Sequence record: PZ179880.1 | DNA length: 64,000 bases | Strand: one strand, 5' to 3' | Source: a phage | Part shown: one piece after another, positions 28,273-52,886 of the stretch | Position numbering within the stretch: the first letter of the stretch is position 1 | Layout of the letters: the number at the start of each line of letters is the position of its first letter | Notes under the pieces: model-generated | What the model saw: the letters and a program-made list of their open reading frames with translations, nothing else | Database searches by the model: none | What the model was told of the DNA's origin: nothing | Translations under genes and position numbers: made by a program

Positions 28273-28566
28273 TTACTCACCTACCACTTCAGCGATGATA
28301 TTTTTATTATTGAAGTTTTTATCGCAATACAGAACATAATTATACTGCATTACACCACCAGACTTAAGTTGTTTTTGCACTTCAGCTTTCATTTCAGGAC
28401 GATCACGCTCAACGATATTCATAATATCTGCTTCAATCTGAGTTTCAACCTCAGTCTGATCTGCAGTCATAGACCATTCGCACAAATCTTTATCATAACC
28501 TGCCATAGCAGGCTGAGCAGCACAAGAAGCTAAAGCAAAAATTGCAGCAAAAACAAATTTTTTCAT
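28273..28566 (-). CDS. sp: Spackle periplasmic protein Sp
   Basis: 97 aa MKKFVFAAIFALASCAAQPAMA... signal peptide; matches T4 Sp (memory). Confidence 0.9.
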   Translation of the reverse strand: MKKFVFAAIFALASCAAQPAMAGYDKDLCEWSMTADQTEVETQIEADIMNIVERDRPEMKAEVQKQLKSGGVMQYNYVLYCDKNFNNKNIIAEVVGE

Positions 28567-28626: not shown

Positions 28627-28884
28627 TTATTTTAAAACTTTTGCATAATCACATGTTACAAACTGTTTCTCTAACTTGACGATTTTACGAAAGTATCTTT
28701 TGCATTGACGAATCTGTCGCTTCGTAGGACGCACAGCAAACTTAATAGATTCCACTCGACCAAATGGAGGACTTTCTTCTGCTGAAATATCTAACACCAA
28801 TTCCCACGTATCCGCAATAAGTGCTTTGAATTGTGTATTTTTCCTGATGTTATACGGAGTAGGTTTAAATAAAACCGTATGCAT
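28627..28884 (-). CDS. Hypothetical protein (85 aa) at the 61.4 position next to dmd; possibly the TifA-like ToxIN inhibitor, not sequence-verified
   Basis: Track ORF trimmed to MHTVLFKPTPYNIRK...; assignment by synteny and size only. Confidence 0.45.
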   Translation of the reverse strand: MHTVLFKPTPYNIRKNTQFKALIADTWELVLDISAEESPPFGRVESIKFAVRPTKRQIRQCKRYFRKIVKLEKQFVTCDYAKVLK

Positions 28885-28885
28885 A

Positions 28886-29068
28886 TTACCCTCGCCAATC
28901 AGATTCAAAAACTTTTTTATCATTAACAAATGCTTTAACTAGTGCTTTATTAACTTCAGCATATTGAGTAGTAGCCCATTGAACGTCATCTTTCATCATT
29001 GTGGTCTCTTTAGTAAACATGCTTTCATTCTTAAACCACCCCATAAAAACTACCTTTACCAATTCCAT
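28886..29068 (-). CDS. dmd: Dmd (antitoxin against host RnlA/LsoA RNases)
   Basis: 60 aa MELVKVVFMGWFKNESMFTKE...; matches T4 Dmd in sequence (memory), size and position upstream of 61.4. Confidence 0.85.
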   Translation of the reverse strand: MELVKVVFMGWFKNESMFTKETTMMKDDVQWATTQYAEVNKALVKAFVNDKKVFESDWRG

Positions 29069-49390: not shown

Positions 49391-49861
49391 TTAATCATGT
49401 TTCCACACCCCATCGGTATTTGACCAAAGTCGCTGATTATCTGAACCTCGCCACAGCTTTTTGGTCGGAAGATTTTTCTCATACTTCCCATCAATAATAA
49501 CATCAACATATTTAAGCATTTCTAGTTGTTTAATATCTTCAAACTTGTACCCTGTCCACAACCAAATGCTTTTATTTGGATAAAGATTTTTTACTGTTTG
49601 AACAATGCAATGAACAACATCTCGGTTATCAGGATAAAGAGGGTCTCCTCCAGTTATAGTTAATCCTTCTATATAATCATTATTCAAACATTCAATTAAT
49701 TGTTCTAGTGTTTCACCAGTGAATGGAACGCCATTTCTAGCATTCCATGTTGATTTATTATAACACCCTTCACATTTATGCAAACACCCCGTAACGAAAA
49801 GAACGACCCTGCATCCAGGGCCATTCACAAAATCACAGGGATAAAATCTATCGTAATTCAT
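49391..49861 (-). CDS. nrdG: Anaerobic ribonucleotide reductase activase NrdG (radical SAM)
   Basis: 156 aa; CxxxCxxC motif CLHKCEGCYN; same length as T4 NrdG. Confidence 0.95.
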   Translation of the reverse strand: MNYDRFYPCDFVNGPGCRVVLFVTGCLHKCEGCYNKSTWNARNGVPFTGETLEQLIECLNNDYIEGLTITGGDPLYPDNRDVVHCIVQTVKNLYPNKSIWLWTGYKFEDIKQLEMLKYVDVIIDGKYEKNLPTKKLWRGSDNQRLWSNTDGVWKHD

Positions 49862-51675
49862 TGGTGTTTAACCCTATGCATGATTTCTTTATTTTTGCCA
49901 AGATTAAATCCGCGCTCGTTCGGATTTCCCAAATAACCGCAAGTTCTTCTTATTGTGTTCATCTTTTTAGGATCAGTTTCTCCACAAATAGAACAAACAA
50001 ACCCGTTTTCAGTAGGAGTCATTTCATGGGTACTTCCACACGTAAAACATTTATCTACTGGCATGTTAACACCAAAATAATCTAAATGTTGTGCAGCATA
50101 ATCCCAGACAGCCTCAAGACCTTTTAGGTTATTTTTCATATCAGGAAGTTCAACATAAGAAATGTGACCACCTGTCGCAATGAAATGATATGGGGCTTCG
50201 CGAGAAATCTTTTCAAACGGAGTAATATTTTCTTCTACTGAAACATGGAAACTGTTAGTGTACCATCCTTTATCGGTAACATCTTTTACACTTCCATATT
50301 TTTTTGTATCAAGTTTACAGAAGCGATAACAAAGGTTTTCAGCAGGAGTCGAATACAAACTAAAAGCAAACCCAGTTCTTTCAGCCCACTGTTTAAGACG
50401 AGCATTCATTTTAGTTAAAATTTCTTGTCCAATATCACGACCGACAAGAATATTCAATTCATGAATACCAATGTATCCTAAAGACACTGAACTTCTACCG
50501 TTTTTAAATAACTCAATTATGTCGTCATCAGGTTTAAGACGAACCCCGAATGCACCTTCTTGGTAAAGAATAGGAGCAACAGTCGCTTTAACTCCTTTTA
50601 AGGAACTAATTCTACACATCAAAGCTTCAAAACATAAATCCATTCGCTCATTGAACAATTCAGTAAATTTCTGTTCATTGAACTGTGTTCCAATATAAGA
50701 ATCCAACGCAATACGAGGAAGATTCAGTGTTACAACACCAAGATTATTACGTCCATCAAGAATTTCATTACCGGTTGAATCTTTCCACGCGCTCAAGAAA
50801 CTGCGGCAACCCATTGGAGAAACAGGAATAGATGAGCCGGTGATAGCTTTATTGTTCTTAGCTGAAATAATATCAGGATACATCCTTTTGCTTGCACACT
50901 CTAGAGCAAGCTGCTTAATATCATAGTTCGGATCGTCTTTATAAAGATTAACACCTTCTTCAACGAACATAACAAGCTTAGGGAAAATAGGAGTTATCCC
51001 ATCACGACCGAGACCTTTAATACGATTTTTCAGAATTGCTTTCTGAATCATTCGTTCAGTCCAGTCAGTTCCCGTACCAAATGTAATTGTTACAAAAGGA
51101 GTCTGTCCGTTTGAACTAAAGAGAGTATTTACTTCATATTCATAAGCTTGGAATGCATCGTATACATCTTTTTCTGTTTTAGATTGAGCATAATTTAACG
51201 CATCAGCGATTTGCCATTTTTCTGCATCCTCAATATGTTTTGCATAGGTGCGTTTAACATAAGGAGAAAGTACTTTATCTACATTAGCAAAAGTCGTTCC
51301 GCCATATTGATGGGAAGCAACTTGCGCAGTAATTTGTGCCATAATTGCAGTAGCAACGCCAATTGATTTAGGAGTTTCAATCTGCGCATTACCAAGCTTA
51401 AATCCGTTCTCAAGCATTCCTTTTAAATCTACTAAACAGCAATTAGTAAATGGAAGAGCAGGGGAATAATCAATATCATGAAAATGAATAATTCCGCTTT
51501 CATGCGCTTTCATAATAAAAGACGGGACCATATTTTTGGCAATGTGTTTAGACACAATACCAGCCATAAGGTCCCGTTGAGTTGGAAAAACACGAGAATC
51601 TTTATTAGCATTCTCGTTCAAAAGGTCTTTATTAGTTTTATGAATCAATCCTTCAATTTCTTTTTCAATTGTCAT
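49858..51675 (-). CDS. nrdD: Anaerobic ribonucleoside-triphosphate reductase NrdD, intronless
   Basis: 605 aa continuous ORF; C-terminal Zn site CFTCGS...CSICGE and glycyl-radical region; same length as T4 NrdD. Confidence 0.95.
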   Translation of the reverse strand: MTIEKEIEGLIHKTNKDLLNENANKDSRVFPTQRDLMAGIVSKHIAKNMVPSFIMKAHESGIIHFHDIDYSPALPFTNCCLVDLKGMLENGFKLGNAQIETPKSIGVATAIMAQITAQVASHQYGGTTFANVDKVLSPYVKRTYAKHIEDAEKWQIADALNYAQSKTEKDVYDAFQAYEYEVNTLFSSNGQTPFVTITFGTGTDWTERMIQKAILKNRIKGLGRDGITPIFPKLVMFVEEGVNLYKDDPNYDIKQLALECASKRMYPDIISAKNNKAITGSSIPVSPMGCRSFLSAWKDSTGNEILDGRNNLGVVTLNLPRIALDSYIGTQFNEQKFTELFNERMDLCFEALMCRISSLKGVKATVAPILYQEGAFGVRLKPDDDIIELFKNGRSSVSLGYIGIHELNILVGRDIGQEILTKMNARLKQWAERTGFAFSLYSTPAENLCYRFCKLDTKKYGSVKDVTDKGWYTNSFHVSVEENITPFEKISREAPYHFIATGGHISYVELPDMKNNLKGLEAVWDYAAQHLDYFGVNMPVDKCFTCGSTHEMTPTENGFVCSICGETDPKKMNTIRRTCGYLGNPNERGFNLGKNKEIMHRVKHQ

Positions 51676-52145
51676 TTTAAACTCTTTCTAAGCTGCTTCT
51701 TAAATGAAGCTATTAATTGTGTTTTAGTGTCAGATTCATTATATTCAAATCCTCTTTGAAGCATCTCGGCCATCATTTCCTCTTTTCCTAAACGAGAAAA
51801 TTCCTTTGATTTATCTCCAACAAAGTTAGGGTGAATATTATTTTGGGTGTAATCGGATTTTAAATAAGTAAGTAAATTTTCTAACCATTCAAGATAATCA
51901 ACACCTTGTCCCTTTAAGCCAGAACGATTAAATTTATGCTTCATTTGACCTTCTGCGGCATTGCATAGATTACAAAGCAATCCACGTACCTTTCCTGCTT
52001 TTGGTCCATTTAATTCATGGTCATGATCAAGATGATTAGCTTGAACATCAGGATTTAGTTCTCGTTGGCAAATTAAGCATTTACCGTTTTGCGCATCATA
52101 AAATTTCTGTTTTTCTTCTTTATATAATTTGCCAGTCAATAACAT
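51672..52145 (-). CDS. 49: Endonuclease VII gp49 (Holliday junction resolvase)
   Basis: 157 aa MLLTGKLYKEEKQKFYDAQNGKCLICQREL... matches T4 endo VII over full length (memory). Confidence 0.95.
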   Translation of the reverse strand: MLLTGKLYKEEKQKFYDAQNGKCLICQRELNPDVQANHLDHDHELNGPKAGKVRGLLCNLCNAAEGQMKHKFNRSGLKGQGVDYLEWLENLLTYLKSDYTQNNIHPNFVGDKSKEFSRLGKEEMMAEMLQRGFEYNESDTKTQLIASFKKQLRKSLK

Positions 52146-52187
52146 AATAAAACCCTTACCTTAAATAGATAAGGGTATTTATTATTT

Positions 52188-52364
52188 TTAAGTATTGTAA
52201 AACATTCGATGCAATCGTTTATACTGTCGAATCATCTTTTTAGTAGGACGAGAATAGGTTCCTACGCAAGTGGTCATATGAGGGTCCGTAGAATGTCCTT
52301 TAATAAAAAGTTTCCAAACCTTACCGCCATTTAACTTTTCAGTATAAACCAATTCGGTTTTCAT
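52188..52364 (-). CDS. Small ORF (58 aa) whose C-terminus is a paralog of the Pin C-terminus
   Basis: Ends KKMIRQYKRLHRMFYNT vs Pin QKIRQYKRLHQMFYNT; lies within a 45-50 bp direct repeat. Confidence 0.4.
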   Translation of the reverse strand: MKTELVYTEKLNGGKVWKLFIKGHSTDPHMTTCVGTYSRPTKKMIRQYKRLHRMFYNT

Positions 52365-52400
52365 TAAAATGTCCTGTCAGAAAAAGAATTTTGAGTTTTT

Positions 52401-52886
52401 TCAAGTATTGTAAAACATTTGATGCAATCGCTTATATTGCCGAATCTTTTGGTCAGAAAAAGAAATTTGAGTTTCAAGCCATTCAATGTACTCTGCGGCA
52501 GCTTGCATCAGGTTACCTTCATAGCCATCGTTATTTTCTTGCGCAGCTAATTTAGCTAATGCGTATGAAATACGTTCACCTTGAAAAGCGGCTTTAGGCT
52601 TCTGAACATCTTGGCTAGTTCTCTCTACAACTTCTTCAATTTCGCCATTTTCAACGGATTCAGTATTCCACAAACACCAGTATGTAATTGGCTTATCATA
52701 GATGTTAATAATCTTTCCGTCGGAAAGTTCAATTTCAATAATTCCAGTATCAGGTTCTATATCATCTTCGCATTCTTTTGCAAGTTCACGAACTTTAAAG
52801 ACAATACCTGCACTAAGTTCAGGCCAGTAATTACACAGCCCTTTATCAGCACGATTAATTCTAAACCACTTATCTACTGTAATCAT
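52401..52886 (-). CDS. pin: Pin (inhibitor of host Lon protease)
   Basis: 161 aa from MITVDKWFRINRADKGLCNYWPEL...; matches T4 Pin (memory); GGAG SD. Confidence 0.8.
   Translation of the reverse strand: MITVDKWFRINRADKGLCNYWPELSAGIVFKVRELAKECEDDIEPDTGIIEIELSDGKIINIYDKPITYWCLWNTESVENGEIEEVVERTSQDVQKPKAAFQGERISYALAKLAAQENNDGYEGNLMQAAAEYIEWLETQISFSDQKIRQYKRLHQMFYNT

Follow-up and report, generated by a model that had tools for sequence, protein, structure and literature searches.

A composite allele between pin and gene 49 of T4-type phages, in which the tail of the Lon inhibitor Pin appears to derive from a short paralog of TifA

TifA, the renamed product of T4 gene 61.4, inhibits the type III toxin ToxN (PMC9391042), an endoribonuclease that is neutralized by this RNA-binding protein (PMC9391042, PMC10853763). 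It is predicted to consist of a three-stranded beta sheet, a loop of ~20 residues and a basic C-terminal helix capped by a conserved Pro-Thr, and its residues P53/T54 and K55/R56/R59 are needed both for RNA binding and for ToxN neutralization (PMC10853763). Inhibition of the Lon protease, the activity of the phage protein Pin, is regarded as an anti-toxin-antitoxin strategy (PMC10286901), and microhomology-mediated duplication and deletion are documented in T4 (PMC9391042). Here we describe a locus at which these subjects meet, in a 64,000-nucleotide (nt) stretch of DNA (sequence record PZ179880.1, hereafter the window) from a T4-like (Tequatrovirus) phage, where the 3' end of pin occurs a second time at the end of an open reading frame (ORF) of 58 amino acids (aa). 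We interpret this locus as a composite allele of a four-state structural polymorphism, extending from pin to gene 49 in T4-type phages, and give this reading a probability of about 0.8.

All genes around the repeats lie on the minus strand, and the layout on the coding strand is pin...A-CAAAAG-B(TGA)-AA-A'-AGGACATTTTA-ATG-X-B'(TAA)-hairpin-gene 49, where X is the body of the small gene and the remaining parts are as follows.

52401..52886, minus strand: pin (Lon protease inhibitor), 161 aa, ATG at 52886, ending ...SFSDQKIRQYKRLHQMFYNT; residues 1-146 are the Inhibitor_I24 domain, residues 147-161 the putative captured tail
52452..52474, minus strand: repeat A, pin codons ...(E)TQISFSD
52446..52451, minus strand: fusion link CAAAAG (Gln-Lys), joining the Pin core to the putative captured tail
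52401..52445, minus strand: repeat copy B, last 14 codons and TGA of pin (IRQYKRLHQMFYNT and stop), a putative captured piece of a TifA-family basic helix
52365..52400, minus strand: non-coding spacer with the A-run junction (52396-52401), A' (52376-52398) and the link AGGACATTTTA; apparently the dead 3' end of a 148-aa pin, with the AGGA site
52188..52364, minus strand: 58-aa gene, putative short TifA-family (DUF7279) paralog, ending ...PTKKMIRQYKRLHRMFYNT
52188..52232, minus strand: repeat copy B', the tail of the small gene, apparently native to it (IRQYKRLHRMFYNT and stop)

A repeat search of the window returned one direct repeat (D1) of 63 nt, 52171-52233 against 52384-52446, 83% identical at a spacing of 213 nt, with a 45-nt core (52188-52232, B', and 52401-52445, B, minus strand) that is identical at 40 of 45 positions. 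A second repeat (D2), absent from an earlier sequence-only reading of this DNA, pairs 52376-52398 (A') with 52452-52474 (A) over 23 nt at 96% identity and a spacing of 76 nt. B and B' each constitute the final 14 codons and the stop of one minus-strand ORF (pin and the 58-aa ORF, respectively); A is coding (pin codons TQISFSD), A' is non-coding. The direct repeat at both sites, as well as the assignment of the second copy to the C-terminus of Pin and of the first to that of the 58-aa ORF, had been proposed in the sequence-only reading and were borne out, and the peptides quoted there are right. That the similarity might be confined to low-complexity sequence, a doubt raised in the same place, is not the case for these repeats, and a 30-nt degenerate sub-pattern of D1 occurs exactly twice in the 64-kb window and in none of 100 shuffles. 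B and B' differ at five positions, at four of which the change is silent in frame, and this argues that both tails are translated.

The shared tail lies outside what is conserved in Pin proteins. Window Pin, which is 93-98% identical to Pin of the T4/T6 type (93-95% to PinA of T4 and T6, with the tail included), matches Pfam Inhibitor_I24 (PF10465) at 162 bits over residues 4-141 only and phrog_2167 at E=1e-65 over residues 1-146; its residues 147-161, beyond both Pin profiles, match positions 44-58 of phrog_3272 as well as our own profile of the small-ORF family (E=1e-5). The tail is missing from 19 of 26 aligned Pin homologs. RB69 Pin, at 137 aa, ends ...YLERRLS, and homologs at 40-50% identity are likewise tail-less, ending ...LEFSSKSF, ...LAFSDRGF or ...ERRLS. 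A small gene with the tail is present in phages whose Pin is tail-less (RB69, IME340, SP1, HY01, Sa45lw and RZ), and also in SHSML-52-1 and NP4, which have no pin, and copy B differs by a single nt from the small-ORF tail of IME340. Because the small-family profiles cover the tail, the Pin profiles and the distant Pins stop short of it and pin-less phages keep it, we take the tail to belong originally to the small gene and to be a later acquisition of Pin. The 161-aa PinA is, on these alignments, a deletion-made chimera, with its last 15 residues taken from a neighboring TifA-like gene, and the segment carried by Pin is, by the same comparison, the distal part of a putative RNA-binding helix without the Pro-Thr cap. 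In T4 PinA the family domain ends at about residue 146, while the natural Pins of 137-148 aa do without the last 15 residues. This would make the textbook T4 Lon inhibitor, which is in use as a biochemical reagent, a protein whose end belongs to another gene family, and structure-function work on PinA and Lon should include a comparison with the natural 148-aa Pins.

The 58-aa ORF matches Pfam DUF7279 (PF23945) at 62.7 bits (cut-off 24.5) over residues 7-56, tail included, and phrog_3272 at E=3e-34 over positions 1-58 of 59. It is therefore a full-length member of an independent family, of which the tail is an integral part, and does not fit the proposal in the sequence-only reading that a duplication of the pin 3' end had given rise to a mini-gene; nor does it lack a start codon or a Shine-Dalgarno sequence, a point raised there for related phages, since it begins with ATG and has AGGA 7 nt upstream. 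Homologs were found in 370 phage records, including RB69 (ORF087c), JS98, RZ, SHSML-52-1 and Salmonella phage NP4, and all of them end RPTK(K/R)xIRQxKR(L/F)HRxFY; the elements RPTK(K/R)xIRQxKR...FY are retained in homologs from Tequatrovirus, Mosigvirus, Dhakavirus, Gaprivervirus and Gelderlandvirus, and residues R39, P40, T41, K42, R46, K49 and R50 are invariant among 10 family members. The small-ORF family profile also matches one other ORF in the window.

28627..28884, minus strand: tifA (T4 gene 61.4), canonical 85-aa TifA, located between dmd (28886-29068) and sp (28273-28566) and the longer of the two paralogs

With T4 gp61.4 this ORF shares 93% identity, and it reaches 70.8 bits against DUF7279, so that the window holds two full TifA-family genes in addition to the tail fragment on Pin. 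Profile-profile comparison (hhalign) of the 58-aa family with TifA gave a probability of 91.9% (E=7e-7), and residues P40, T41, K42, K43 and R46 of the 58-aa protein align with P53, T54, K55, R56 and R59 of TifA, the basic helix residues K42, K43, R46, K49 and R50 following a Pro40-Thr41 cap. The best AlphaFold2 (AF2) model, with a predicted local distance difference test score (pLDDT) of 81.6, has strands at residues 2-9, 15-22 and 31-37 and a helix at 42-56. The 58-aa protein shares with TifA the Pfam family, the predicted build and a nearly identical RPTK(K/R)xIRQxKR segment, and both are encoded by small early-region accessory genes of T4-like phages. It differs from TifA in being 27 residues shorter (58 vs 85 aa), without the C-terminal extension; in having only ~8 residues between strands 2 and 3, in place of the ~20-residue loop that is predicted to contact ToxN; in its location between pin and gene 49, outside the dmd-tifA operon; and in being absent from T4, T2 and T6.

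In fold comparisons, the sole significant match of the 58-aa protein was a family member from phage S16 (template modeling score 0.75-0.80), and a Foldseek search of the PDB with its model returned nothing at E <=0.001. When the small-ORF profile was run with HMMER against 1.84 billion representatives, nine matches resulted, three of them at E <1e-10, and the long multi-stretch matches look spurious, which points to a narrow family with no informative fusion partners. No mention of DUF7279 was found in a literature search, which was likewise uninformative on the Pin tail, and the 58-aa protein is not among the homologs of the published neutralization panel (the strings MKTEL and RPTKK do not occur in its supplement). 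By its profile matches and conserved residues, the 58-aa ORF is a genuine short TifA paralog, and by analogy its product is most likely an RNA-binding mini-TifA, which would neutralize some RNase-type toxin distinct from the ToxN examined to date. A Lon-related role of the 58-aa product, as suggested in the sequence-only reading, finds no support, its relative TifA being an inhibitor of ToxN. Since TifA, the sole characterized member of the family, is a counter-defense protein, the short paralog is an obvious candidate for inhibiting some other toxin, and differences in host range between otherwise near-identical therapeutic phages may in part be due to it; many T4-like phages, T4, T2 and T6 not among them, carry such a second, shorter TifA-family gene.

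Allele states were obtained from an alignment of the interval from pin to gene 49 of sequenced phages, and their frequencies were counted in 50,697 phage records. In the split allele (IME340, HY01, Sa45lw and SP1), arranged A-link-TAATG-X-B', a 148-aa Pin ends ...SFSDRAF or ...SFSDRTF, and the TAA of pin overlaps the ATG of the 58-aa gene (TAATG). The fused allele (T4, T2, T6 and Shinka), arranged A-link-B, lacks 137 nt relative to the split allele, and its junction, ...TCTGAC-CGAATG/CAAATG/CAAAAG-ATTC(A/G)GCAATAT..., continues into the final 14-15 small-gene codons, giving a 161-aa Pin that ends ...SFSDRMIQQYKRLHQMFYNT in T4 and ...SFSDQKIRQYKRLHQMFYNT in T6; the link occurs as RM (T4), QM (in two Pin sequences, P0021 and P0023) and QK (T6 and the window). 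The pin-only allele (Pu-Krd-SF2) has a short Pin and a small gene that is deleted between TTTTAAT and TTTTACAAT, and the double allele (the window, ECO07P4 and others), arranged A-link-B-A'-link-X-B', combines a fused Pin with an intact small gene. At the T4 pin locus, to which the sequence-only reading had pointed for comparison, the Pin tail is present, whereas the 58-aa gene is not, T4 having the fused allele.

The fused junction, found in 366 records and in about 70% of those from Tequatrovirus, marks the commonest allele, and 114 of the 366 also carry the window-type junction from B through A' to X at an identity of at least 96.6%. The repeat in the window is therefore not a recent event in this genome, but belongs to a widespread haplotype. 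The small ORF is present at 80% identity or more in about 195 records, which, less the 114 of the double type, leaves an estimated ~80 split alleles, and pin-only alleles number about 60 as estimated from an evenly spaced sample. A scan of IMG/VR with Pin gave six loci, which contributed extra alleles in numbers too small for statistics. A natural allele series (split, fused, both, neither) thus exists for this locus and recurs in two genera. A rare fifth arrangement, in Ec_YwIITB1, has part of A, the link and a T6-type B within the small gene, which is frameshifted as a result; here a 17-nt insert (part of the pin 3' end and the T6-type link; L018, 352-612) gives an 86-aa ORF that overlaps the start of gene 49. 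As judged from its parts, this arrangement is another recombinant between fused and split alleles.

The two halves of the window locus match different alleles. Its A-link-B segment is identical to the T6 pin end at 74 of 74 nt, its A'-link segment to the coding 3' end of the SP1 pin (...ETQNSFSDRTF and stop) at 34 of 34 nt, and body X to SP1 at 130 of 132 nt, and we infer from the second of these identities that the spacer preserves, in dead form, the 3' end of a short (148-aa) pin. It is from this relic that the small ORF has its AGGA ribosome-binding site. The possibility that AGGA arose after the duplication, as an offset for lost translational coupling, was ruled out, given that the identical sequence already codes for the SP1 pin end. 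The two parts meet within six consecutive A's, and CTTGAAA occurs nearby in both parents, offset by 3 nt; as a crossover within CTTGAAA would leave three A's, strict microhomology amounts to ~1 nt. The ancestral state, as comparison shows, was a short Pin (137-148 aa, ...FSDRAF and stop) immediately followed by a TifA/DUF7279 gene of 54-61 aa, often with a TAATG overlap. The alignments suggest that in Tequatrovirus a 137-nt deletion subsequently removed the final pin codons together with the first ~43 codons of the small gene, which would have brought the last 14-15 small-gene codons into the reading frame of pin and so given T4, T2 and T6 their 161-aa Pin. In a further step, a T6-type fused end, up to its stop and four A's, would have been joined at the A-run to an SP1-type split allele, the SP1-type part starting with the last 23 nt of its short pin, either by illegitimate recombination between co-infecting phages or by tandem duplication followed by exchange. 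The outcome would be what the window holds: a Pin with the tail, a defunct 36-nt remnant of a pin 3' end, and a complete short TifA paralog that has an AGGA of its own. On this reading, the direct repeats are scars of past rearrangement and not a functional DNA element.

This history resembles the shuffling known from T4-type genomes by microhomology and at promoter/stem-loop (PeSL) cassettes, in that small accessory genes are gained and lost between conserved genes and several alleles coexist (PMC9391042, PMC2839356, PMC4122927). The homologies at the junctions are very short here as in T4-type microhomology events (ACGTTT in the Mosigvirus-like contig L025, AAT in Pu-Krd-SF2 and the A-run in the window), and the locus differs from PeSL shuffling in that it has no promoter/stem-loop cassette and that the breaks lie within coding sequence, where they make in-frame chimeras. 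The locus would thus illustrate how microhomology deletions turn neighboring phage genes into protein chimeras.

Two other histories were weighed. The sequence-only reading had spoken of a recent segmental duplication or a domain-shuffled mini-gene; of these, the shuffling stands, while the polarity is the reverse, as described above for the tail, and the recency does not hold, as B with its upstream sequence matches the T6 pin end at 74 of 74 positions and the spacer SP1 at 34 of 34, and the junction is found in 114 records. A tail native to Pin, with the 58-aa ORF made by duplication of the pin 3' end or with an unrelated body X inserted into an ancestral long pin, could appeal to the 89% identity of the two tails at the DNA level at a distance of 213 nt, and to the 161-aa Pin being the commonest allele (366 records) and the one characterized in T4. 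We consider it very improbable, since the tail lies inside the DUF7279/phrog_3272 model that the small ORF matches full-length, tailed small-gene homologs occur in genera with a tail-less Pin or no pin, canonical TifA shares the Pro-Thr-capped basic helix from a distant locus, and both Pin profiles and distant Pins end before the tail. A more credible alternative, though still an unlikely one in our view, is that duplication came first: in a split ancestor, a 213-nt unit comprising the pin 3' end and the small gene would have been duplicated in tandem, and the first body then deleted in frame, with the T4/T6-type alleles later derived from the window type by recombination between B and B'. This scheme predicts the layout A-B-A'-X-B', the CTTGAAA heptamer does lie at both sides of the 213-nt unit in split alleles, and T4 easily forms tandem amplifications via short homologies (PMC9391042). 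The Pin tail of Shinka has a B'-like 3' half (AAA, CGA, TAA), as expected from an exchange between B and B', and it indicates that exchange between the two kinds of tail does occur. On the other hand, an exchange at CTTGAAA predicts three A's at the junction, where six are found, the T6 tail is B-type through the stop codon and hence no simple B x B' product of the window haplotype, no A-X-B-A'-X-B' intermediate was seen, and the left and right halves of the locus best match different allele classes, which favors the joining of two pre-existing alleles.

As to a role of the tail in Pin, the small-gene tails of the alleles compared show four silent changes and one replacement, while the Pin tails carry the replacements R2Q, H8N and R9Q, each of which removes a basic or His residue; this suggests, at the level of codon changes, relaxed constraint or selection against basic character. 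The Pin tail is most likely a tolerated, slowly decaying relic, as judged from its missing Pro-Thr cap and the loss of basic residues. An adaptive tail, in which the captured helix would aid Lon binding in a degron-like manner, tether Pin to RNA or keep a former interaction of the small protein, is an alternative to be reckoned with, though an unlikely one. It would explain the dominance of the fused allele (about 70% of Tequatrovirus records), and is in line with the independent C-terminal fusion in contig L025, the translational coupling of pin and the small gene in split alleles and the potent Lon inhibition by T4 PinA, which has the tail (PMC8835725). Its ending, ...KRLH(R/Q)MFYNT, is also loosely like the C-terminal Lon degron of SulA, ...LKIHSNLYH (the C-terminus was checked from MG1655 as ...GLKIHSNLYH), and the pattern [KR][IL]Hxx[LF]Y, which was defined post hoc, occurs in the window only in both ORF tails and in one spurious ORF. 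However, one-third of random deletions are in frame, so that recurrence needs no selection, Pin tails lack the Pro-Thr cap and collect charge-removing replacements, tail-less short Pins persist in many phages, AF2 gives the tail no confident packing, and the resemblance to SulA, post hoc in itself, is a weak lead that descent from a basic helix would account for just as well.

Retention of the repeat as a DNA or RNA element (a PeSL cassette, terminator or recombination site) instead of as coding sequence seems hardly probable at all. T4-type genomes do shuffle genes at repeated promoter/stem-loop cassettes (PMC2839356, PMC4122927), and the repeats here flank a variable gene, but neither copy contains a sigma-70-type promoter, a stem-loop or a terminator-like site, the sole hairpin (52152-52176) stands downstream of B' alone, four of the five changes leave the encoded residue unaltered, and it is the protein, not the DNA, that is conserved across genera. 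That pin and the small gene are closely paired, and often coupled in translation, is suggestive, by analogy, of a joint role. On a bolder and rather improbable extension of this, pin and the short TifA paralog would form a coupled anti-toxin-antitoxin module, in which Pin blocks Lon-dependent decay of antitoxins and mini-TifA traps the released RNase toxin on RNA; fusions at either end of Pin would reflect this partnership, and the PinA tail would contribute to activity and not be a scar. If so, it may act via RNA tethering, or via binding of Lon or of a partner.

Several points weigh against the composite-allele reading or parts of it. The junction of the last step, in an A-run with ~1 nt of microhomology, is compatible with more than one order of events, the site of the Tequatrovirus fusion shows no evident microhomology, and the link variants RM, QM and QK could stem from a single event with later point changes or from more than one event. 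The contrast between synonymous and nonsynonymous changes comes from 8-10 substitutions and is not significant, and because the commonest allele is the fused one, the tail on Pin could be beneficial rather than neutral. Only one of five AF2 models of the 58-aa protein is confident, the other four having a pLDDT of ~53, and the AF2 model of Pin is poor (pLDDT 61.6, tail <50); a PDB sequence search with Pin returned no entry. Apart from 114 and 366, the allele counts are estimates.

Fusions of Pin with members of the same family also occur outside Tequatrovirus. In the Mosigvirus-like contig L025, Pin ends ...YLERR-FHRDFYNVY and is fused to the last nine codons of an ORF087c-type gene at ACGTTT microhomology, and in contigs L026 and L027, from two different metagenome samples, a full upstream DUF7279 paralog is fused in frame to the N-terminus of Pin and the downstream paralog is deleted. 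These Pin/TifA-family fusions in Mosigvirus-like contigs arose independently of the Tequatrovirus fusion. The product in L026/L027 (1201-1776) is a 191-aa fusion protein (P0046) with a Mosigvirus-type Pin. RB69 has pin bracketed by two TifA-family genes, of which ORF089c (L005, 605-776) is the 3' part of a second, upstream DUF7279 paralog that is frameshifted in a run of seven A's (MQVKLLYRLLKKWQT and stop); the intact form of this paralog is present in SHSML-52-1 and L025.

Downstream of the small gene and upstream of pin, the window has the following neighbors.

52152..52176, minus strand: hairpin and T-run, just upstream of the gene 49 start; after B' only, not duplicated
51672..52145, minus strand: gene 49 (endonuclease VII), the downstream neighbor
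49858-51675, minus strand: nrdD
upstream of pin, minus strand: 49.1 homologs and further genes

The hairpin has a stem of 10 bp (ACCCTTATCT...AAGGTAAGGGT), its T-run ends 6 nt before the ATG of gene 49, and it includes the Shine-Dalgarno region of that gene and is kept in all alleles, including that of RB69; this would be the regulatory hairpin known for gene 49 of T4 (Barth et al. 1988).

Further rearrangements of pin itself were noted in other phages. In JS98 (L006, 729-1204) and RZ (L019, 328-501), a 57-aa 'Pin-like' gene comprises only the C-terminal helical part of Pin (...AAADYIHWLEAQLRFSDEAF and stop); in RZ this piece directly precedes the short TifA paralog, and in JS98 it is followed by a 100-aa ORF resembling the N-terminal beta domain of Pin (...FWCFWTNDDNEF), so that the two halves are split and permuted in order. 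In P0039, a 142-aa protein from a metagenome, residues 1-82 of Pin are joined to a fragment matching Peptidase_S24 (PF00717), which probably represents either a chimeric contig or a rearranged phage.

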